DNA of 17,171 bases from a virus: the IMG/VR virus record IMGVR_UViG_3300012060_000014, positions 1 to 17,171 of that record; one strand, given 5' to 3'. Numbering within the stretch: position 1 is the stretch's first letter; every line of letters starts with the position of its first letter. The translations under genes were made by a program, and so were the position numbers. Shown one piece after another: positions 1 to 17,171 of this stretch. Under the pieces are notes generated by a model. The model did no database searches. It saw nothing but the letters and a program-made list of their open reading frames with translations, and was not told the origin of the DNA.

Positions 1-123
1 TCCATCAAACACAATTTTACTCCACAATGTTTCACGTGAAACATTCTGGTAAAGTGGTAACGTGGTAATGTGCTAATTCGTTAAAGCACTTTAGTACGGT
101 GACGTGGTGGTGTGGTGACGTGA
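1..123. repeat. Left inverted terminal repeat (123 bp)
   Basis: I reverse-complemented 1-123 by hand and it matches 17049-17171 at every base. Identity stops at 124 (a) versus the complement of 17048 (g). It contains a perfect 20-bp palindrome AATGTTTCACGTGAAACATT (26-45) and four ACGTG cores. Confidence 0.97.
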
Positions 124-213: not shown

Positions 214-273
214 AAAGAAGATAGGATATATGTTAATTAAAAACTAGACAAGTAGAAAGGGGTAAGGACACAC

Positions 274-486
274 ATGCATATTGCAGATCAGATTGAATAC
301 GTAAAAACAATGATTAAAAATGTAAGTGATGAGATTGGTTTTTCACAAGACAGGGAGGAAATATCACATTTAGCAGACGAAAAAGTCAGGCTAATATCTC
401 TATTGGTAAGTCTGGAAAAGCTTGCAAAAATCAATTCCTTAGTTGAAGCTTTTAACGCACAAAAAGTCACTCCGACGAGTCTTTGA
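274..486 (+). CDS. Hypothetical early protein (70 aa, predicted helical)
   Basis: First ORF after the promoter, with RBS AAAGGGG/AAGGA upstream of the ATG. No recognisable motifs. Its last codons overlap the 5' half of hammerhead copy 1. Confidence 0.7.
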   Translation: MHIADQIEYVKTMIKNVSDEIGFSQDREEISHLADEKVRLISLLVSLEKLAKINSLVEAFNAQKVTPTSL

Positions 487-525
487 AAATTAAGACGAAA
501 CTGCTCTTGATGAGCAGTAAGTGAC
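466..525 (+). ncRNA. Type I hammerhead ribozyme motif, core variant (position 4 is C)
   Basis: Stem I is GUCACU (466-471) / AGUGAC (520-525). The core is CCGACGA (472-478). Stem II is GUCUU/AAGAC (479-483 / 492-496) with loop UGAAAAUU. GAAA is at 497-500. Stem III is ACUGCUC/GAGCAGU (500-506 / 512-518). H17 is A519. It shares an exact 24-mer with the 6284-6341 copy. Confidence 0.65.
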
Positions 526-582
526 AGTGAGGTCACTAGTGGATAGATGGGATAAGCCATCACACGAAAGGAGCAGTGTATA

Positions 583-1065
583 ATGAAAAATTATATTGTA
601 ACAATTAAAGACGGTCTTGCATTAACAGCACATGAGGAAATGGCAGAATCCGTGAACACTTTAAAATTAAAGTACGGTGATAAATTCGTTGGCGCATCAT
701 TCATCGGACGGGCAACTTTGGAAGATAATATCAGGAAATTCGTAATTGAAAATTACGGTACTGAATACGTGCCAAGAGGCGAAACGATGGAAGAAATAAA
801 GACAGAAATTGAGCATTTGAAAAGCACGATAAAGCAGGTAAATGTTATTTATCGTGGCCAATCTGGTAATCTGCTAGATGCAACATTATCTACTAAAGTT
901 GACATTGAAGAGTGGTGTAAAAAATACAATTACACTTACGTAACAAAATACGGTTTACGCAATTTGTGTAATGAGGAACTTATCAACCTTGCCGTTCATA
1001 CCGTTTTGAATAAAGACAAAATTGCTATGCAGGCAGAAAACGAAAAGGAGAAAATATCATGTTAA
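583..1065 (+). CDS. Hypothetical early protein (160 aa)
   Basis: Strong RBS GAAAGGAG 9 nt upstream of the ATG. The stop overlaps the next start (ATGTTAA). No recognisable motifs. Confidence 0.8.
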   Translation: MKNYIVTIKDGLALTAHEEMAESVNTLKLKYGDKFVGASFIGRATLEDNIRKFVIENYGTEYVPRGETMEEIKTEIEHLKSTIKQVNVIYRGQSGNLLDATLSTKVDIEEWCKKYNYTYVTKYGLRNLCNEELINLAVHTVLNKDKIAMQAENEKEKISC

Positions 1066-1436
1066 TAGAATTCACATTAAAATCAACATTTTTAAATTTC
1101 AATGACCGTTATAACAAGATAGTAAAAGCAAGAAAAAAAGACGAATCTTCATATGTAACATTTTCCGCACCATATTCGGTCAAGACGGATAAAAAAACAT
1201 ATGAAAACAGGTACTTATCATGCATTAAGTTTTTTGATGATCCGGAAAAAGCAGAAGATTTTGGCATCCTACTCGATGAATCGGATGGAGTAAAATATGA
1301 TATATATGGAACAATAACAGATATTAATGAAAAGGGATATGTAAACGTAGTGGTTGATGAAATATGTCTAGTTGAAGAAAAAAAGGGCAGGGGAACCAAC
1401 ACAAGTAATAAAGGAAGAAACGGCAGAAATAAATAG
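1059..1436 (+). CDS. Hypothetical early protein (125 aa); possible ssDNA-binding protein by size, position and basic tail only
   Basis: RBS AAAAGGAG, translationally coupled to the upstream ORF and immediately upstream of the polymerase. The body looks beta-rich and the C-terminal tail is G/R/K/N-rich (KKGRGTNTSNKGRNGRNK). Its size is similar to phi29 p5. No diagnostic motif. Confidence 0.75.
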   Translation: MLIEFTLKSTFLNFNDRYNKIVKARKKDESSYVTFSAPYSVKTDKKTYENRYLSCIKFFDDPEKAEDFGILLDESDGVKYDIYGTITDINEKGYVNVVVDEICLVEEKKGRGTNTSNKGRNGRNK

Positions 1437-1472
1437 AACACAAAACATAAACGTAGAGAGGGGTTAACTTAA

Positions 1473-3764
1473 ATGTTAGAAATAATTAACAATAAAGAAA
1501 ATCTCTCTCTTTATTTAACCAAAAATTTGAGAGAAAAGAAACACATATTTTACGATATTGAAACGGTAACACTCAACCAAAAAACAAAAAAACCTAGTGA
1601 ACTTTTATCAATCGAATACATATGTGCAATTTCATATTTATATCAGGGAAAAGTAAATTATTTCTTCACACCGACATTGGAAAGTTTCATCAAATATCTG
1701 TACACAATAAAATCATCATGCAAGATAGACCTAACAGGTCAATTCATTTTTGGTTTCGACAATCATTTCCTCTTAAAATCCTTGACCGAACTGGGTTACA
1801 CTCCGGTCAACATGGAAAGAGATGCAATCAACGTACCATATTACACAAATTTAACCGCCGAAAATCCGGTCGAATGTTTAAGGGTGAAAAGAAAGTCCTC
1901 TCTCTCACTCAAATTCAAAATAAACGATATGGAAATTGAGACGGTTGACACAATTTTGAAGTCAAATTCCAAACTTGAAACGATGGGAAAGAAGCTACTC
2001 AATCTTAATTTGATTGATGAGGAATATCTTAAACTTGATGATTTTGATTATGAATTATACAATAAGAAAGAAAATTACACACTTTTCAAAGCGAAAGAAT
2101 ACGCAAGACAAATATACGATAATTTGAGTGAACGACAATTACAGTATTGCAGGAATGACGTTGTAATATTAGCCCTATACAAACATCATTACAAAGAATT
2201 ATACCCCAATTACGATTATTTCAAAATGACGTTATCACAAAATATAATGTCTGACTATGACACAACAAAATTATCAGTATTACAACTTAAAAACATTTTC
2301 TATAACGCAAAAGTTGAGAAACTTAGTGCAAGAGAAAAGCGGAAATATGAAACACACATAAAGTATTCTGACTATGTTTTTAACGGAATAAATCTATATC
2401 AATATTTGAAAGCGTCATATTCCGGTGGTCTTGTAATTTACAACGACAAACACATAGCGAAAATGATTAATAGATTAATGCGTTATGTGGATAGAAATAG
2501 TTCTTATCCTCACGTAATACACAAATTTCCAGTTCCAACTTTTTTAAAGGAATTCGGAAATGCAACAACACTGAACAACCTGAAAAAAGAAAACGAATTT
2601 TCCGTTTTTAGAATGACAATTGATGAATTCAATAATATGATTTTGGAAATTGATTCACACTTCATAAGATGTGCATTTGTAAAATATCTGTATAAGGGAA
2701 AAGATGATATTACGATAAATTCAAATAATCTGTTATTGTTGGAAGAGTTTGGAGTTGATTTGAGACGTTTTAAGTGCATGGACTACATAACATTCGAATG
2801 TAAACGTTTTGACACACACGAAAAGATTGCTGAATTTTACGCAATGAAACAACAATCAAAAAACAAAAATGAGATTGATGCGACCGATGTTGAAAATATA
2901 ATAGTATTAGATAATATCCTTGATAAATTAGATAGTACGGATGAGGAAATATATTTAGCAAAAGTGTCTATGAATGGACTTAGTGGCTTACCAGCTTTGA
3001 GATCAACTTTTCCTGTATATGTTTTAAATGAAAATAGTGAAATAGTTGGATATCAAACTGGATTCACAAACAAGGAAAGAAATTGCATATTTTCGATTTT
3101 TGTAACATCACATTCATTTTATGATTTGTTGCACCCACTTACGACATTAACAGCGGACGAAATTGATAATTATGTATATTACACAGATACTGATTCCCTC
3201 ATTGTTGATGATGTAATTTTTCACAAACTTGATTGTAAATTAGACGAAAACAATCTAGGTGCATGGGATGTTGAATATAATATCAAGAATTTATACATTG
3301 CAAATAATAAAATGTATTGTTTCCAGACAACCGAAAATAAAATTGTGGTAAAATCTTGTGGAGTTCGTAAAGATGCATTTGATACAAAAAACAAAACATT
3401 CGATGAGTTTGTAAAAGAATATTTAGCAATTGGTTGCAAACTTCCGAACCTCAAAAACGTGTTAAATAAACACGGAACTATCTCACTCTACAACGCATAT
3501 ACAGAAATCAAGGAACCACGTTACCGATTACCAGAACAAATTTTTAAGAAAACTAAGGAAGTACTTGACGAAATAAAAAGACAGGTCAGAAATTCACTCA
3601 CTATGGAAGAATATGAAGATACAATTTATATAGAAACATATCACGGCGCACTATCTTTGAGCGAATGCGTGGAAGAGGAAAACGAAACGGACGGAAAACA
3701 AGACATAGAAAAAATTGTAAAAACCTATAAGTTAGCAAAAATTTATATGAGAAAGGAAAAATAA
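1473..3764 (+). CDS. Family-B DNA polymerase, protein-primed (phi29 type)
   Basis: 763-aa ORF with RBS GAGAGGGG. The ordered motifs are ExoI FYDIETVT, ExoII FGFDNHFLL, ExoIII YCRNDVVIL, motif A YVDRNSSYP (DxxSLYP type), motif B KVSMNGLSG (Kx3NSxYG type), motif C YYTDTDS and the KxY region VVKSCG. A linear ITR-bounded genome implies protein priming. Confidence 0.95.
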   Translation: MLEIINNKENLSLYLTKNLREKKHIFYDIETVTLNQKTKKPSELLSIEYICAISYLYQGKVNYFFTPTLESFIKYLYTIKSSCKIDLTGQFIFGFDNHFLLKSLTELGYTPVNMERDAINVPYYTNLTAENPVECLRVKRKSSLSLKFKINDMEIETVDTILKSNSKLETMGKKLLNLNLIDEEYLKLDDFDYELYNKKENYTLFKAKEYARQIYDNLSERQLQYCRNDVVILALYKHHYKELYPNYDYFKMTLSQNIMSDYDTTKLSVLQLKNIFYNAKVEKLSAREKRKYETHIKYSDYVFNGINLYQYLKASYSGGLVIYNDKHIAKMINRLMRYVDRNSSYPHVIHKFPVPTFLKEFGNATTLNNLKKENEFSVFRMTIDEFNNMILEIDSHFIRCAFVKYLYKGKDDITINSNNLLLLEEFGVDLRRFKCMDYITFECKRFDTHEKIAEFYAMKQQSKNKNEIDATDVENIIVLDNILDKLDSTDEEIYLAKVSMNGLSGLPALRSTFPVYVLNENSEIVGYQTGFTNKERNCIFSIFVTSHSFYDLLHPLTTLTADEIDNYVYYTDTDSLIVDDVIFHKLDCKLDENNLGAWDVEYNIKNLYIANNKMYCFQTTENKIVVKSCGVRKDAFDTKNKTFDEFVKEYLAIGCKLPNLKNVLNKHGTISLYNAYTEIKEPRYRLPEQIFKKTKEVLDEIKRQVRNSLTMEEYEDTIYIETYHGALSLSECVEEENETDGKQDIEKIVKTYKLAKIYMRKEK

Positions 3765-3767
3765 AAA

Positions 3768-4169
3768 ATGGCATTAAATGAAATGCGTTCTAGGTCGAAA
3801 AAACCGCAAGATCAGGAAAGAGTAGAACAGGTAAAAAAGTATTACCGTAACAACACATTTTTAAATTTTGACAAAGCAACTCTTACACGGAATGAGGTTA
3901 CAAATCTGCTTAGTGAAAGAACAAAGAGTATGATTGATGATTTTGAAACGTTTCTCGATGTGCAAAGACATGAATCAAATATGTACATCAACGGCGCATC
4001 AAATTACAGTGAAAATTCTTTCATACATGATATTATGTCAAAAATGAATAAAATGTCATTACGAAAACAAATGCAATTCATGGAGAAAGCAAACAAACTA
4101 TTGAGAGAGGGTGGAATTAAAGGTGATCCGTACTCATGGCGTGCCGTAAAATATTCTGAATTCGGGTGA
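3768..4169 (+). CDS. Hypothetical protein (133 aa); weak terminal-protein candidate
   Basis: RBS AAAGGAAAA and ATG 4 nt after the polymerase stop. The N-terminus is basic (RSRSKKPQDQER...KKYYR) and Ser/Tyr residues lie near the C-terminus. No homology recognised. Confidence 0.75.
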   Translation: MALNEMRSRSKKPQDQERVEQVKKYYRNNTFLNFDKATLTRNEVTNLLSERTKSMIDDFETFLDVQRHESNMYINGASNYSENSFIHDIMSKMNKMSLRKQMQFMEKANKLLREGGIKGDPYSWRAVKYSEFG

Positions 4170-5392
4170 TAGATATGAAAGCTGGATTAAAAAACAAAAT
4201 TGACAAATGCATCAAAAAATACCGTGATTTACAGGATGAAAGATACAATAAATTCCTGTTATTAGACTATCTCACGGATGATGAAATTGACATAATGATG
4301 AGCATTACAAACCGGACAGACGGAAAAACATATTCGAACATCCTTATGCTACTTAGATTAAACGCTGAATTCGGTCTAACATTCGTTCTAATGTGTAGAC
4401 ATTTCACACTAAGAAAAGCATACTTAGCAACTGTTTTCGATATCGTAAACAGCGAACGCACTCACGATTCAAACCAACTCACAATTATGAACCGTGAGGA
4501 ATTTATCGAAATCGTGGGTAAAGGTGGTAAAACAGTTTGTTGCGTAACAGATCTTAATAGCGCAAGTGATTTGAAATATCGTGCAAATGAAATGCGTCAT
4601 TATGATTTAATTGTATATGATGAATTCATCGCACTTGAGCATGAATATTTATCACATGAAGTAGAATCCTTAAAGGTAATTTATGAAACTATGGATAGAG
4701 AATCAAACAAACGATTACTTGACAATCCGAAATTAATTTTTCTCGGAAACGCAATCAATTTTGCAAGTCCGGTAATCAGTTACTACAATATTTTTTCTGA
4801 TATCGAATTACAAGAAATCAACACAATTCAGGTTGTTGAAAAACTTACGGAAAACAACGACCACCTAAAAATAGCAATCGAATTACGCCGAAATGAAGAG
4901 GTAAACAAAACCAAAAATAGCAAACTTTTTAATTTAGGTGGAAACAACTATGCGCTGTCAGGAGAGTTCACAACGAATGATTATCTATTACATAACAACG
5001 TTGACAACATGGAATACATAATTTTAAAGATTGATAAAAAGTATTTGAAATGCTATTACAATTCAGTTCGGATTGTTTTGAACGTCCTTGATTATTGCGA
5101 TTCATACGGATACTGCAATAGCATTGCGGACATGAAAAAAGACGTGCATTACCTCAACGATAACTATTTTGATTCAGAACACATTCACAAAATGTATGAC
5201 CGTACAATCCTGTACGCAAACACATACACATTGCAATTCATTTCAAAATCAACTTACCTACAACAAATTTTGTATGAAGAAATCGTTGCAGAAATTATGT
5301 ACGATAAAAAGCAGATTAAAAAGATGATTGAACACAAGAATACAGACAAACGAATATTAGATATATTGAAACAATTTGAAAGTCCATTTTAA
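4166..5392 (+). CDS. DNA encapsidation (packaging) ATPase, phi29 gp16-like
   Basis: It is collinear with phi29 gp16 as I recall it. The matches are NRTDGKTYS vs GARGIGKSY (Walker A region), FVLMCRHF vs FIYVRRY, LIVYDEFI vs TIVFDEFI (Walker B) and LIFLGNAINFASPV vs CICLSNAVSVVNPY. The track start is GTG 4166, overlapping the upstream TGA. ATG 4175 is an equally plausible start. Confidence 0.88.
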   Translation: MIDMKAGLKNKIDKCIKKYRDLQDERYNKFLLLDYLTDDEIDIMMSITNRTDGKTYSNILMLLRLNAEFGLTFVLMCRHFTLRKAYLATVFDIVNSERTHDSNQLTIMNREEFIEIVGKGGKTVCCVTDLNSASDLKYRANEMRHYDLIVYDEFIALEHEYLSHEVESLKVIYETMDRESNKRLLDNPKLIFLGNAINFASPVISYYNIFSDIELQEINTIQVVEKLTENNDHLKIAIELRRNEEVNKTKNSKLFNLGGNNYALSGEFTTNDYLLHNNVDNMEYIILKIDKKYLKCYYNSVRIVLNVLDYCDSYGYCNSIADMKKDVHYLNDNYFDSEHIHKMYDRTILYANTYTLQFISKSTYLQQILYEEIVAEIMYDKKQIKKMIEHKNTDKRILDILKQFESPF

Positions 5393-5407
5393 AAAAAAAG
5401 AAAGGAA

Positions 5408-5593
5408 GTGAAAAAAAACATGATTGCTAAGAATGAACGTAAAATTATTATATGTCCAAAATGTAAAGGTGAGGGATTCAGGTTAGACAGAGTTAACGTT
5501 AATAATTCAATTGATTTACCGTGCAAATGCAAATATTGTTGTGGGAAAGGCAGAGTTATTAAACACACGGTTATCACACATACGATTGTTTAA
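5408..5593 (+). CDS. Small zinc-finger protein with two DnaJ-type CxxCxGxG motifs
   Basis: It carries CPKCKGEG and CKYCCGKG motifs plus an extra CKC. The track start is GTG 5408, directly abutting AGGAAG. ATG 5420 (MIAKNERK...) is the more likely start. Confidence 0.65.
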   Translation: MKKNMIAKNERKIIICPKCKGEGFRLDRVNVNNSIDLPCKCKYCCGKGRVIKHTVITHTIV

Positions 5594-5646
5594 GAAAAAA
5601 ACACAATTTAACTTCAAAAATTTGTCAGGAAAAATGCAGATTTCTC

Positions 5647-5675
5647 TTGACAATTTTTGTTATTCGTGGTAAAAT
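5647..5675 (+). promoter_or_regulatory. Internal promoter for the 5708-7184 cassette (consensus -35, extended -10)
   Basis: TTGACA (5647-5652), a 17-nt spacer and TAAAAT (5670-5675) preceded by TGg. The -35 lies in the right arm of an imperfect inverted repeat, CAAAAATTTGTCAG (5615-5628) / CTTGACAATTTTTG (5646-5659). Confidence 0.7.
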
Positions 5676-5707
5676 AAAAGAAAAAAGTTAATTTAGGGGG
5701 TAGCACT

Positions 5708-6013
5708 ATGACATACAAAAAGGTAGTTGAGGGAATCGCAAGAAATACAGTTGGTAAATTTATATTAGACAGGTTGGAACGTGGTTATTTTGATATTGAT
5801 AGCATAGAACTTACACAACCAATCGGCAAGGTTTTTGATGAAATGATATTTTTTCAAGTTAAAGTTCGCATTAACAAGTTTGATGATTTACTTGAAAGAG
5901 ATTATGCAATAGACGGAGCTATTTTCGACACTGGTAAAGGTACGGTAACATCAATTACTACACACGATGATAATTTCATTTATTCAGACACACTCAAAAA
6001 ATTTAAATTCTAA
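5708..6013 (+). CDS. Hypothetical protein (101 aa)
   Basis: RBS AGGGGG 7 nt upstream. It is the first gene after the internal promoter. No motifs recognised. Confidence 0.8.
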   Translation: MTYKKVVEGIARNTVGKFILDRLERGYFDIDSIELTQPIGKVFDEMIFFQVKVRINKFDDLLERDYAIDGAIFDTGKGTVTSITTHDDNFIYSDTLKKFKF

Positions 6014-6025
6014 GGAGATAGCAAG

Positions 6026-6283
6026 ATGAAAAATTTACTTAAAAGAATCCAAAATGAGGTAGTTGTAATAGAAGATTCATTAATGAGAAATGGAAAGCTG
6101 TTAGGAGATCAATCAATAACGGTCGCATTAGTTCTAACGGATGATGAAAAAGAATTGTTCAAAGAATGTCATTATTTTGAAAGTGAAAATTTTTGGTGGG
6201 AAATTACTGATAATGTTTTATATCTTACTTATTCCGGTGAAAATTTTTGGTGGGAAATGGAAAATATGATAACTTATTCATAA
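6026..6283 (+). CDS. Hypothetical acidic protein (85 aa) with duplicated ENFWWE motif
   Basis: RBS AAGGAG. It is rich in E and D. SENFWWEITDN and GENFWWEMENM are encoded by a repeated 21-mer, GTGAAAATTTTTGGTGGGAAA (6183-6203 and 6237-6257). Confidence 0.8.
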   Translation: MKNLLKRIQNEVVVIEDSLMRNGKLLGDQSITVALVLTDDEKELFKECHYFESENFWWEITDNVLYLTYSGENFWWEMENMITYS

Positions 6284-6341
6284 GTCACCCTGAGGAGTCT
6301 TTGAAAATTAAGACGAAAACCAGCATAGCTGGTTCGGTGTC
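6284..6341 (+). ncRNA. Type I hammerhead ribozyme motif (full consensus core)
   Basis: Stem I is GUCACC (6284-6289) / GGUGUC (6336-6341). CUGAGGA is at 6290-6296. Stem II is GUCUU/AAGAC (6297-6301 / 6310-6314) with loop UGAAAAUU. GAAA is at 6315-6318. Stem III is AACCAGC/GCUGGUU (6318-6324 / 6328-6334). H17 is C6335. All invariant positions are present in the correct order. Confidence 0.85.
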
Positions 6342-6368
6342 ATAAAAAATCTAAGGAGGAAAAACAAA

Positions 6369-6662
6369 ATGACAGACCAAACAAAAATCAAGGTTATCGA
6401 ATTATCAATGGATTTAAACAACGTAATAAACGAATCAGTAAAGACAGTAAAGGGCGAATATTTTCAAGGATTATCAACACTTAATGTTACTACAAATCTA
6501 TTCAAAGATGATGCTATCTCGATTTATCAGTTAATAAGTGAATACGCTACAATGACAACTTTGCTCTGTGAGCTAGGATTCATCGATAAAGAGTTATATG
6601 AGACTCAATGGCAGTTGATGGAAGACATTAGACAAATAGCAATGCATGATTTATTCCAATAA
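6369..6662 (+). CDS. Hypothetical protein (97 aa, acidic, predicted helical)
   Basis: RBS AAGGAGG 8 nt upstream. It is the first ORF on the predicted 3' cleavage product of the hammerhead. Confidence 0.8.
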   Translation: MTDQTKIKVIELSMDLNNVINESVKTVKGEYFQGLSTLNVTTNLFKDDAISIYQLISEYATMTTLLCELGFIDKELYETQWQLMEDIRQIAMHDLFQ

Positions 6663-6714
6663 ATAAAATCACACGCTGACCTAACGGCAAATACGGGGAG
6701 AAAGAGGTATTATT

Positions 6715-6963
6715 ATGAGTGAAACAAAACTAAACACAAGCGGAATTGAGACAGTAAAAATTGAAAAAGTCGGTTACATCTACAAGCTTTGGGATAAGGT
6801 AAATGAAATCGTATTTGAAATGAAAACGATGGAACGGCGTTCATTCAGAACTGGAAACTACATTTTGCTGGATTCCAGAAAAGTAAAATTTCAAATTGCA
6901 GTCAGCGTTGACCTCAACGAAATGAAATTTTTGGAAGAAAAGGGAAGTGAGGTAATCGAATGA
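6715..6963 (+). CDS. Hypothetical protein (82 aa)
   Basis: RBS GAAAGAGG upstream of the ATG. The stop overlaps the next start (ATGA). Confidence 0.75.
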   Translation: MSETKLNTSGIETVKIEKVGYIYKLWDKVNEIVFEMKTMERRSFRTGNYILLDSRKVKFQIAVSVDLNEMKFLEEKGSEVIE

Positions 6964-7184
6964 TAAGCAGATACAAACTAAGAGTATTTTTGAGTAATAT
7001 ACCAGTTGGACAGAGATTTTATATTGACGCAATAAATTTAACAAGTCAAGCAATCGTTTATCTTAGGGGTTGTATAAAAGAAGGTTTTATAATGCCAGTG
7101 GATTTTGAAAATAGAGTTAAAATCAAGGAATCCGTAGAATCAGGTGATACAATCTTACCACAAGGATATTACAAAAAAATTTAA
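6960..7184 (+). CDS. Hypothetical protein (74 aa)
   Basis: RBS GTGAGG, coupled by ATGA to the upstream ORF. It ends at the terminator hairpin. Confidence 0.7.
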   Translation: MISRYKLRVFLSNIPVGQRFYIDAINLTSQAIVYLRGCIKEGFIMPVDFENRVKIKESVESGDTILPQGYYKKI

Positions 7185-7206
7185 AGGGGGTTACCCCCCT
7201 TTTTTA
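7183..7206. terminator. Bidirectional rho-independent terminator between the convergent arms
   Basis: The sequence is AAA-GGGGG-UUAC-CCCCC-UUUUUU. A 5-bp all-GC stem (7186-7190 / 7195-7199) has a T run downstream on the + strand. On the - strand it is followed by UUUAAAUUUUUUU. It sits exactly between stop codons at 7182-7184 (+) and 7207-7209 (-). Confidence 0.8.
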
Positions 7207-8610
7207 TTACAAAATTCTCAAAAATCTCCAATTAAGTCTCTTAATACTATTAATGTAAGAGTCTAAATTTTCCTCAACCGTTCCGTAAGCCGTTCCCTTG
7301 CAGTGGATGAACGTGTTATTTTCTGACACTATCCCGACATGTGCATCACGTGCTTGCGGTGCTACTTCGGTTAAAATTAAGTCACCGGCTTTCAACTTTG
7401 ATTTGTTGGAATTGATTTCAGAATAACCACCACTTCCAGACGCAATAAGATTACCAGCAGTTCTCAAATTTCCAGTCCATGAACATATTTCCCCACCACT
7501 ATTATACAATTTTTTTTCTGTTATCATATAATAAAGCGTAACAACAAATGACGAACAATCGGCATAACCATCGGAAAACGAAAAACGGTCGGTATCTAGT
7601 TCCTGACTATAAGATAATTTTCCAACGTATGACCTAGCAAGATCAATATAATTTTGAACTTTCGTTCCGTCCGTTGGAATTGGTGGGGGGTCAGTCGTGT
7701 TTGGATTGTCGGGGGTCGGGGTGGAATCCTCTCCTTTAATCGGTTTTGAATTATTGTTTGCAACGTCTTGTTTATTTGGAGTCCAAATTCTAACTCCTTC
7801 TTTAAATAATTGCACTATCTGTCTAGTTCCGTTTGAATCAACTCCAATCAAATGATACACATTCCCCCGCAATTGCATTGATGTGATTGTCAATGCAGAA
7901 CTTGTGTTATCCTCAACTATTTCCTCATTAGTATCAGGGTCAGGAAGAACAGTATTTACGTTTTGATCTTCGCTTGGATTTCCGTCCGTTGGAATTTCAT
8001 AATTACCTTTTTTTTGTCCAAAGTCGGGGGGTGGTGATGAACCATCCCATTTATTTAAAATATCATAAACCTTATTCCACCTTGAAACATATCCGCCAAA
8101 AGTTCCATCGTTAAGAAGTGCCTGTCTGTATTGTGCAATCGTGGTACCTCTACCACCCCCACACGCATTTACAATTCTAGCAACGGTTCCGATGCCACCC
8201 AACCAACCGCCGGTTTCCGCAAAAATTGCAGTTTTCGGATCAGTAAAATTATGTGATTTCAACACGGCTGATTCATCCGTAATATCTCTATTCCATAATT
8301 CCGTTTGCAGTTCGACACTTTTCGCACTTTGCAATATTTTTGACACGTTGTTTGCTTCATCTATCGTAAATGTTTTGCTAGTCCACCCACCTGATTCCAT
8401 TTGAGATTTCATAGGGTTAACCGTGAAAAGTGAAGGGTTATCATCGTAAAACAATTTCAAAAGTTTGTAACTCCTTGAATGACTCCACTGTAAAAGTCCT
8501 ATTCCAACTCTATCCCCTAATTCGATTTGCGCCCAATTATAATTTACAGATTCCACACTTGCAAGAACATATAAGCAGTATTCTTTCCAAACGCTGTCAT
8601 ACATAGCCAT
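7207..8610 (-). CDS. Tail-associated peptidoglycan hydrolase (phi29 gp13 analogue): lysozyme-like N-domain plus NlpC/P60-type C-domain
   Basis: The N-terminal SVES...GIGLLQWS matches the ES...GxGLxQW pattern of phi29 gp13 (QSES...GFGLVQWT, from memory). Two P/T/D/N-rich linkers each contain IPTDG. The C-terminal ADCSSFV...HVGIV is a Cys-His peptidase signature. It is the last gene of the late arm. Confidence 0.8.
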   Translation of the reverse strand: MAMYDSVWKEYCLYVLASVESVNYNWAQIELGDRVGIGLLQWSHSRSYKLLKLFYDDNPSLFTVNPMKSQMESGGWTSKTFTIDEANNVSKILQSAKSVELQTELWNRDITDESAVLKSHNFTDPKTAIFAETGGWLGGIGTVARIVNACGGGRGTTIAQYRQALLNDGTFGGYVSRWNKVYDILNKWDGSSPPPDFGQKKGNYEIPTDGNPSEDQNVNTVLPDPDTNEEIVEDNTSSALTITSMQLRGNVYHLIGVDSNGTRQIVQLFKEGVRIWTPNKQDVANNNSKPIKGEDSTPTPDNPNTTDPPPIPTDGTKVQNYIDLARSYVGKLSYSQELDTDRFSFSDGYADCSSFVVTLYYMITEKKLYNSGGEICSWTGNLRTAGNLIASGSGGYSEINSNKSKLKAGDLILTEVAPQARDAHVGIVSENNTFIHCKGTAYGTVEENLDSYINSIKRLNWRFLRIL

Positions 8611-16935: not shown

Positions 16936-16982
16936 ATGTTCCACCCCCTTTCTTTATTATACATATAATTTATATCTAATTA

Positions 16983-17011
16983 ATTATAACATGATTCGAC
17001 AAAATTTGCAA
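16983..17011 (-). promoter_or_regulatory. Right-end promoter driving the - strand structural and lysis arm
   Basis: On the - strand: TTGCAA (17011-17006), a 17-nt spacer and TATAAT (16988-16983) preceded by TGt. It matches the left promoter at 25 of 29 positions. Confidence 0.7.
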
Positions 17012-17048: not shown

Positions 17049-17171
17049 TCACGTCACCACACCACCACGTCACCGTACTAAAGTGCTTTAACGAATTAGC
17101 ACATTACCACGTTACCACTTTACCAGAATGTTTCACGTGAAACATTGTGGAGTAAAATTGTGTTTGATGGA
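17049..17171. repeat. Right inverted terminal repeat (123 bp)
   Basis: Exact reverse complement of 1-123. Confidence 0.97.

Follow-up and report, generated by a model that had tools for sequence, protein, structure and literature searches.

Does a small phage cut the RNA of its left-arm operon at the boundaries between gene blocks? The question is raised by IMG/VR virus record IMGVR_UViG_3300012060_000014, of which the whole stretch of 17,171 nucleotides (nt) was analysed and is called the window here. An earlier note had described a complete type I hammerhead ribozyme at 6281-6344 on the + strand, between the genes for an 85-amino-acid (aa) and a 97-aa protein, with a predicted cut at 6335/6336. 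This assignment holds to the nucleotide, and both covariation and a covariance model built for the family (R1) agree with it. The note reported a single hammerhead and overlooked a second copy at 462-529 (+), which R1 detects at 65.7 bits (E 1e-18). Taken as a whole, the evidence is best explained if both elements, hammerhead A (462-529) and hammerhead B (6281-6344), cut the left-arm RNA at gene boundaries and separate gene blocks, and we consider this likely.

Structure of the two hammerheads

Hammerhead B is a complete type I hammerhead, and every coordinate agrees with the sequence. Its elements and the start of the gene that follows it are:

6284-6289 / 6336-6341, + strand, stem I, GUCACC / GGUGUC
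6290-6296, + strand, core CUGAGGA, with C3-U4-G5-A6-N7-G8-A9 all in place
6297-6301 / 6310-6314, + strand, stem II, GUCUU / AAGAC, closed by G10.1-C11.1 (G6297-C6314)
6302-6309, + strand, loop II, UGAAAAUU
6315-6317, + strand, GAA (G12-A13-A14)
6318-6324 / 6328-6334, + strand, stem III, AACCAGC / GCUGGUU, seven pairs, loop AUA
6335, + strand, C17 (H17, not G), directly 5' of the stem I 3' strand; predicted cut 6335/6336
6354-6360 and 6369, + strand, ribosome-binding site (RBS) AAGGAGG and ATG of the 97-aa gene, 18-33 nt 3' of the hammerhead B cut

Stem III opens with the A15.1-U16.1 pair (A6318-U6334). The element is atypical at no invariant position; its peculiarities are a G at N7 and an A-U pair at 15.2-16.2, both rare, and a U6285-U6340 mismatch (2.5-1.5) in stem I. 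Beyond stem I, A6283 faces A6342, followed by the pairs A6282-U6343 and U6281-A6344, and the TAA stop codon of the 85-aa open reading frame (ORF) coincides with 6281-6283. The predicted cut lies 33 nt upstream of the ATG at 6369. The three-way junction is both the minimum-free-energy and the centroid structure of 6278-6348 (RNAfold; -17.4 kcal/mol, z -2.5).

Hammerhead A has the same architecture with one change in the core:

466-471 / 520-525, + strand, stem I, GUCACU / AGUGAC
472-478, + strand, core CCGACGA, with C473 at position 4 (U4C)
479-483 / 492-496, + strand, stem II (G479-C496)
484-491, + strand, loop II, UGAAAAUU
497-499, + strand, GAA
500-506 / 512-518, + strand, stem III (A500-U518)
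519, + strand, A17 (H17, not G); predicted cut 519/520
274-486, + strand, 70-aa ORF upstream of hammerhead A, from the ORF list and the sequence; no family match
520-537, + strand, hairpin AGUGAC-AGUGAG-GUCACU at the 5' end of the RNA that hammerhead A would free; re-uses the stem I 3' strand

Its helices are all perfect, at 6, 5 and 7 base pairs (bp), and its loop II and flanking A residues fit the consensus, A465 and A526 being the counterparts of A6283 and A6342. The minimum-free-energy fold is again the three-way junction, at -21.7 kcal/mol. The 70-aa ORF reads through stem I and the core and ends at a UGA inside loop II (484-486). When 520-600 is folded, a 6-bp hairpin forms from nucleotide 1 (-20.2 kcal/mol, z -3.4).

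Independently of the family, a relaxed type I descriptor (stems of at least 4/3/3 bp) found only hammerhead B and the U4C copy (466-525) in the window, with no match on its minus strand, and matched 17 of 2000 dinucleotide shuffles of the window. The reverse complement contains no hammerhead core and no R1 match. A minus-strand reading was rejected: it folds similarly (-18.7 kcal/mol), as any set of hairpins would, with neither the core nor model support. A DNA pattern containing GACGAAAC did not recover hammerhead B because stem III there begins AA.

Covariation and conservation in the hammerhead sub-family

Both copies belong to a large family. An exact pattern (core plus TCGGTG) matched 33 contigs in IMG/VR, and a broader pattern with the core and the loop II motif fixed matched at least 120 viral contigs there and at least 120 bacterial species genomes, mostly of gut Clostridia with some Saccharibacteria, Melainabacteria and others. 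Approximately 109 distinct copies were parsed; they have stem II and loop II in common (GUC-NN-UGRRAAUU-NN-GAC), and stems I and III vary freely.

Covariation was tested on an alignment of 40 sequences with the structure proposed in the earlier note, the controls being the same structure with pairing partners slid by one to three columns. In the proposed structure 95.7% of alignment cells are paired compared with 28-43% in the slid controls, and the covariation score is 0.78 compared with 0.05-0.12. Double changes occur in 13 of the 17 pairs, including all six pairs of stem I and both free pairs of stem II. Sequences entered the alignment as seeds only with a parsable stem III; stem I and the two variable stem II pairs, which this selection left unconstrained, are 91% and 100% paired, respectively, and four to five types of pair occur in each. 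The same three helices were obtained independently with RNAalifold, and GAA, A15.1-U16.1 and G10.1-C11.1 are invariant across the alignment. The R1 model, built from 39 sequences from outside the window, scores hammerhead B at 70.7 bits (E 2.6e-20), with the best background match at 12.6 bits.

Conservation extends beyond the helices. The core is CUGANGA in 177 of 180 model matches, GAA is invariant among them, and loop II is UGAAAAUU in 123; H17 is C in 160 copies, A in 10, U in 8 and G in 2. An unpaired A directly 5' of stem I (position 2.7; A6283 in hammerhead B) is found in 132 of 134 distinct copies, with an A opposite in 104, and therefore what had first been described as an A-A mismatch is a conserved feature. 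Both window copies carry this A together with loop II UGAAAAUU, and the joint conservation of the two suggests that they probably form a tertiary contact; in type I hammerheads, fast cleavage at physiological Mg2+ requires loop II to contact stem I.

The placement of the family is equally regular. In 105 of 168 copies the nearest upstream ORF on the same strand stops within the ribozyme or 0-3 nt ahead of stem I, the next ORF most often starts 21-40 nt past stem I, and 73-81% of copies are co-oriented with the flanking long ORFs; the element is therefore an intercistronic RNA element. G-U pairs and the strand-specific core also point to an element acting at the RNA level, on the + strand in the window. 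Hairpins at the 5' end left by the cut are modestly enriched in the family (4.68 versus 4.13+/-0.09 bp, from sequences that are not independent). We did not adopt such hairpins as a general family feature, and treat them as a suggestion only, the enrichment being modest and inflated by related sequences.

Proposed processing of the left-arm transcript

The left-arm operon runs from approximately 220 to 7202 on the + strand. Its parts in relation to the two cuts are:

583-6283, + strand, gene block between the cuts (ORF list)
within this block, + strand, in order: ORFs of 160 and 125 aa, the polymerase, an ORF of 133 aa, the packaging ATPase, and ORFs of 61, 101 and 85 aa
1473-3764, + strand, DNA polymerase (tblastn)
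4166-5392, + strand, packaging ATPase (phrog_2150 terminase/encapsidation, 7.7e-52)
6369-7184, + strand, genes 3' of hammerhead B (97, 82 and 74 aa), without a detectable homologue
185-213, + strand, promoter-like site TTGCAA-17-TACAAT with TG; a consensus match only
5647-5675, + strand, strong internal promoter-like site TTGACA-17-TAAAAT with TG (11/12), 5' of the 101-aa gene; a consensus match only
7183-7202, no strand assigned, bidirectional terminator-like hairpin between the convergent gene clusters, at the end of the transcript that holds both hammerheads

Hammerhead A follows the first small ORF, and hammerhead B divides the 101- and 85-aa genes from the 97-, 82- and 74-aa genes. The site at 185-213 probably drives the operon, judging from its consensus match, and the only + strand terminator-like site in the operon is the one at 7183-7202, with none at either hammerhead.

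The data show the motifs, the family to which they belong, its covariation, their placement and the recurrence of U4C; catalysis itself and every consequence downstream of it we infer. Each hammerhead would fold co-transcriptionally into the three-way junction and self-cleave, A at 519/520 and B at 6335/6336. The cut would fall just past the upstream stop codon and 33-63 nt ahead of the next start codon, and the polycistronic RNA would therefore be split without destroying any reading frame. The upstream piece would carry the compactly folded ribozyme at its 3' end, finished by a 2',3'-cyclic phosphate. The downstream piece would begin with a 5'-hydroxyl (5'-OH) and a short defined leader that has its own RBS and, after hammerhead A, opens with the terminal hairpin. 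In the manner of RiboJ, neighbouring gene blocks would gain separate stability and translation efficiency, independent of upstream context. By this analogy, separate stabilities and translation of the gene blocks, and their insulation from upstream context, are likely.

Several observations weigh against this account. Stem I of hammerhead B is weak, with four contiguous pairs and then the U-U mismatch at a position where 90% of family copies pair, and its N7=G and its A-U pair at 15.2-16.2 are out of the ordinary for the family. In the minimum-free-energy fold of a 221-nt context, stems II and III are retained and stem I is lost to alternative pairings; the ensemble there is diffuse, and the fold is a secondary-structure prediction without tertiary contacts. 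U4C strongly lowers activity in minimal hammerheads, and on that ground hammerhead A might be nearly inactive. The two nearest relatives of the phage, found by a protein-cluster search and with polymerases 55-57% identical, do without a hammerhead, and a phage of this type therefore does not depend on the element. By analogy with the glmS ribozyme, RNase J1 could leave downstream genes on balance impaired instead of insulated. Finally, a search of the whole window with Rfam 15 gave no match at gathering thresholds; a permissive search of 6240-6400 gave one relevant match, a partial Hammerhead_3 at 13.1 bits against a threshold of 48.5, and Hammerhead_1 did not match hammerhead B even then.

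An Rfam search had been proposed in the earlier note as a check on the assignment, and a lack of covariance-model matches above threshold, together with absent self-cleavage in vitro, as grounds to reject it. The search returned nothing above threshold, and we ascribe this to insensitivity of the Rfam models, given the 70.7 bits from the family-specific model. Across 12 loci with clearly canonical family members, an Rfam hammerhead match was obtained for one copy only, in L016. Typical members scored, in permissive mode, 19.9 bits with Hammerhead_1 (threshold 34), 20-24 bits with Hammerhead_3 (48.5) and 22-27 bits with RAGATH-1-hammerhead (56.3). Because canonical members also fall below threshold, the negative is a sensitivity gap and not a refutation. 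The other permissive matches on 6240-6400 (SSRC34, freshwater-2 and others) were discarded as spurious, being driven by the RBS and the hairpin.

Three local features of the RNA around hammerhead B were recorded. In the 221-nt fold, GGUGA (6236-6240) pairs with the 5' strand of stem I. The 20-nt sequence GAAAATTTTTGGTGGGAAAT occurs twice within the 85-aa ORF (6186-6205 and 6240-6259), where it encodes a duplicated ENFWWE peptide. The 5' end of the hammerhead B product (UGUCAU, 6338-6343) can pair with AUGACA (6369-6374), a stretch containing the 97-aa gene's start codon; this pairing is present in the minimum-free-energy fold of 6336-6420 and is weak, at -6.5 kcal/mol for the whole fragment.

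Fate of the downstream RNA

The analogy with glmS can be carried further, with both hammerheads acting mainly as built-in destabilisers: in a Bacillota host, the 5'-OH ends would expose the downstream RNA to RNase J1, a 5'-to-3' exonuclease. Cleavage would then turn down whatever follows each ribozyme, namely the replication block after hammerhead A and the 97-, 82- and 74-aa genes after hammerhead B, instead of insulating or stabilising it. We find this possible but doubtful. The precedent is that, according to a passage in PMC3328962 citing Collins 2007, RNase J1 breaks down the 5'-OH product of glmS in B. subtilis. A Gram-positive host is probable for this phage, and the 3' product of hammerhead B lacks a strong 5' hairpin (-6.5 kcal/mol over 85 nt). 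The hammerhead A product, however, opens with a 6-bp hairpin at nucleotide 1, and the family is modestly enriched for hairpins of this kind; 5'-terminal stem-loops should hinder 5' exonucleases. After hammerhead B a strong RBS stands 18 nt from the 5' end, and constitutive down-regulation by the phage of its own polymerase operon seems costly.

The U4C core of hammerhead A

In a pattern scan, CCGANGA in the family scaffold was found in 26 viral contigs, and U4C is present in at least 14 distinct copies with intact, covarying and mutually different stems I and III. Position 4 toggles between U and C at clearly orthologous ribozymes of closely related phages (loci L036/L065 versus L150, L047 versus L162, L052/L088 versus L152/L165/L168, and L070 versus L149/L171). 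Such toggling suggests either near-neutrality of U4C in this scaffold or its use in tuning the cleavage rate. In the account that PMC3088659 gives of its ref. 30, a viroid hammerhead with U4C is much slower in vitro, yet sufficient in vivo, and because of this precedent hammerhead A is judged probably functional but slower-cutting.

It seems to us unlikely that only hammerhead B is active, with the U4C copy decaying or inactive and retained for some other purpose, such as encoding the last part of the 70-aa protein or serving as a structured 3' untranslated region. U4 is an invariant core base, and a statement in PMC3088659 is that U4C 'considerably decreases activity in vitro'. Because the 70-aa ORF extends across the hammerhead A core together with stems I and II, coding constraint is possible there; U at position 4 would, however, give a Leu instead of a Pro codon and no stop, so coding does not force C. 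The helices of hammerhead A are perfect, with loop II and the A at 2.7 intact. The recurrence of U4C across the 26 contigs, with covarying stems I and III in at least 14 copies, is unexpected of a dead copy, and the toggling of position 4 between orthologues speaks against this reading as well.

Less likely readings: ligation and chance resemblance

A more elaborate outcome than the release of separate gene blocks would be a rearrangement of the RNA by the ribozyme pair. In this scheme the 3' ribozyme of the 520-6335 fragment ligates the fragment's own 5' end to give a 5.8-kb circular mRNA, or the outer fragments are joined. Comparison of the two copies shows 5 of 6 matching positions in the stem I 5' strand (GUCACU and GUCACC, 466-471 versus 6284-6289) and 0 of 5 in stem III, and a chimeric stem I formed by the hammerhead B enzyme and the hammerhead A 3' strand is predicted at -7.3 kcal/mol versus -5.6 kcal/mol for native B. 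Hammerhead copies sharing one contig have stem I at least 5/6 identical in 32% of cases (22 pairs) versus 6% across contigs, and Perreault et al. raised cleavage-ligation products as a possibility (PMC3088659). The chimera nevertheless has a C-A mismatch at 1.1-2.1, beside the point of ligation, folding predicts that the 5' end is tied up in a hairpin of its own, and translating ribosomes and the 5.8-kb distance disfavour the reaction. The within-contig sample is small and partly related, many multi-copy loci have no shared stem I, and duplication or gene conversion explains the likeness equally well. We regard rearrangement as very improbable, and it would be just as far-fetched to see in the circular mRNA a carrier of the replication and packaging genes and in the phage pairs that share stem I a set of RNA cut-and-rejoin devices.

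Shared stem I sequences within contigs occur even with unrelated stem III (L015, L039, L052, L066, L087 and others). Duplication or gene conversion could account for this likeness, and so could selection that keeps enzyme and substrate strands interchangeable. As evidence for ligation it was set aside, being statistically suggestive and inseparable from duplication or gene conversion.

Chance resemblance, or hairpins serving as a terminator or a DNA-level site, is effectively refuted: it has in its favour the silence of Rfam above threshold and a minus-strand stretch (518-500, stem III of hammerhead A with a T-rich tract) that fits a simple terminator pattern, and against it E values of approximately 1e-18 to 1e-20 with the custom model, three-helix covariation with an invariant strand-specific core in an alignment that is not of near-identical sequences (stem I and III pairs each show 4-5 pair types), a relaxed descriptor matching fewer than 1% of shuffles, no + strand terminator pattern at either site, and the location of 500-518 in an operon of the + strand, with no minus-strand gene ending anywhere near.

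Phage genome and host

The window ends in perfect inverted terminal repeats, the left at 1-123 and its partner at 17049-17171 (100% complementary), and is on the strength of these 123-bp repeats a complete linear genome. Pfam identifies Phi29_MCP (6e-63), a GP10-type Phage_connector (1e-15) and Caud_tail_N / phi29_gp9_C tail domains, a LysM endolysin is encoded, and the DNA polymerase is 33-34% identical to Rountreeviridae polymerases (tblastn). The earlier note's identification of the genome as that of a phi29-like protein-primed podovirus is supported by the repeats, the capsid, connector and tail domains and the Rountreeviridae-like polymerase. Pfam DNA_pol_B_2 was not detected in the window polymerase at E<=0.001, and no terminal protein was identified in the window. 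The phage is uncultured, and its host is probably Gram-positive (Bacillota), because of the LysM endolysin, the AAGGAGG ribosome-binding sites, and polymerase relatives found only in phages of Bacilli.

Promoter-like regions are mirrored at the genome ends, 185-243 and 16953-17011 being 73% complementary over 59 nt inside of the repeats, which implies symmetric inward transcription of two convergent gene clusters. The small left-arm proteins are largely without relatives: the 85-aa and 97-aa proteins found none in viral contigs, PHROGs gave no family for nine of ten, and a nucleotide search of 5600-7300 against GenBank phages, in near and distant modes, returned no match.

Distribution among protein-primed phages

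Among ten tested genome-sized (13-18 kb) contigs that bear family hammerheads, eight encode a DNA_pol_B_2 polymerase. In each of these eight, every family hammerhead precedes the polymerase, on its strand and near a contig end, which is the position of hammerhead A. Distant structural proteins in common with the window were found in eight contigs.

Seven closer relatives of the phage do not carry the element. Locus searches based on the polymerase returned no relatives in viral or metagenome contigs. The two nearest relatives mentioned above also lack the block of small genes around hammerhead B, and no hammerhead was found in three contigs with two more distant polymerases (33-35% identical) or in five cultured Rountreeviridae genomes. 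One weak relaxed-descriptor match in the Rountreeviridae scan, inside a coding region (L294), was dismissed as it had no model support. Since relatives exist without it, the element is sporadic and tied to accessory regions, and it is no hallmark of the lineage.

Relation to known hammerheads and RNA-processing elements

The earlier note had set the novelty of this find too high and had described a role in phage operon processing as not established. Phage and prophage hammerheads, including several that flank gene blocks, were described in 2011 by Perreault et al. (PMC3088659), together with self-cleavage of phage hammerhead arrays in vitro and natural core variants. The same authors proposed that long phage transcripts are processed into single-gene or operon-length mRNAs (PMC3088659), and a 2019 review still calls the role of bacterial and phage hammerheads 'largely elusive', with polycistronic processing merely suggested (PMC6765202). 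The part of the claim that stands is the link to phi29-like phages, for which our literature search found no paper. A hammerhead in a phi29-like phage is unreported and not surprising, as the same family occurs in at least eight other uncultured small phages with protein-primed-type polymerases.

The closest known elements are the type I bacterial and phage hammerheads (PMC3088659; Rfam RF00163 Hammerhead_1, clan CL00010), with which the window copies share the core, the junction, the open stem I and cleavage after H17, as well as intergenic placement, multiple copies flanking gene blocks and proposed transcript cutting. They differ from RF00163 in the fixed stem II and loop II of the sub-family (GUC NN UGRRAAUU NN GAC), the invariant unpaired A, the 6-bp stem I and the long stem III, and from the published phage hammerheads in their carrier, a phi29-like protein-primed podovirus. 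RAGATH-1 (RF03152), from bacterial and phage loci associated with hammerheads and twisters, is also of type I, with A/U-rich sequence leading into stem I and likewise a long stem III; it differs in its minimal stem II and extra upstream hairpin, and RF03152 matched neither window copy.

Other systems resemble single features. The viroid U4C variant has the same single core change as hammerhead A, but is a type III hammerhead of a circular RNA replicon, whereas hammerhead A is of type I and lies in a DNA-phage mRNA. In RiboJ (PMC6206723) a hammerhead just 5' of the RBS fixes the 5' end of the translated RNA, and a hairpin follows the cut as in hammerhead A; RiboJ is an engineered type III element from sTRSV, so comparison with the window is a functional analogy only. 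In glmS, as outlined in PMC3328962 and PMC6765202, a ribozyme-made 5'-OH in a Gram-positive mRNA leader sets the fate of the downstream RNA; glmS is an unrelated metabolite-dependent class, and the window hammerheads show no sign of a ligand-binding domain.

Beyond what was known, the present locus adds a second copy with a U4C core in a clean genome context, a recurrent position upstream of the polymerase in small protein-primed phages, and an abundant sub-family that both Rfam thresholds and existing annotation miss. The kinds of elements known in phages are unchanged by this result. The window is an unusually simple test setting: the 17-kb genome is complete, its single left-arm operon has probable promoters and a terminator, and the ribozymes at its gene boundaries number exactly two, one with the consensus core and one with a natural U4C. 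For annotation, the value lies in a sub-family, found in no fewer than 120 viral contigs and in the genomes of at least 120 bacterial species, that scores below every Rfam hammerhead threshold.

Further observations on the family and its loci

Deposited records with exact core matches belong to crAss-like phages, a few fecal 'Bacteriophage sp.' contigs and Agathobaculum phages, and in these records no annotation lies under any of the matches. Exact 31-nt matches to the core and loop II, each without an annotated feature, include:

NC_055889.1, 99074-99104, crAss-like phage cr53_1
NC_055902.1, 445-475, crAss-like phage cr131_1
NC_055903.1, 5519-5549, crAss-like phage cr272_1

A 6.6-kb high-GC viral contig (L016) carries eight tandem type I hammerheads at 2988-6433 (+), approximately 330-690 nt apart, of which a single copy passes the Rfam Hammerhead_1 threshold (36.2 bits). 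In L105, a type II hammerhead above the Rfam threshold (38.5 bits) lies approximately 300 nt from a type I family copy, the pair occupying 34-103 (-) and 401-463 (-) on the same strand, and a single locus can thus combine different hammerhead topologies. Some family hammerheads have RAGATH-4 and RAGATH-36 RNAs and several tRNA genes as neighbours at 1-2 kb or less (L021 4350-4483 and 6980-7109, and L013 2003-2130), which links these loci to known 'ribozyme-associated' neighbourhoods.

A 16-nt perfect palindrome, TGTTTCAC(G/A)TGAAACA, occurs nine times in 1.5 Mb of viral loci, with far fewer than one occurrence expected by chance, and always lies approximately 30-1250 nt from a contig end. Its positions are:

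28-43 and 17129-17144 of the window, inside the terminal repeats, without a hammerhead core
L088, 457 and 1244
L138, 816
L143, 13349
L168, 1196
L036, 89
L009, 144

In several small protein-primed phage contigs the palindrome forms stem III of a hammerhead or lies directly 3' of one. A possible role for it is to bind a protein in the early or terminal region.

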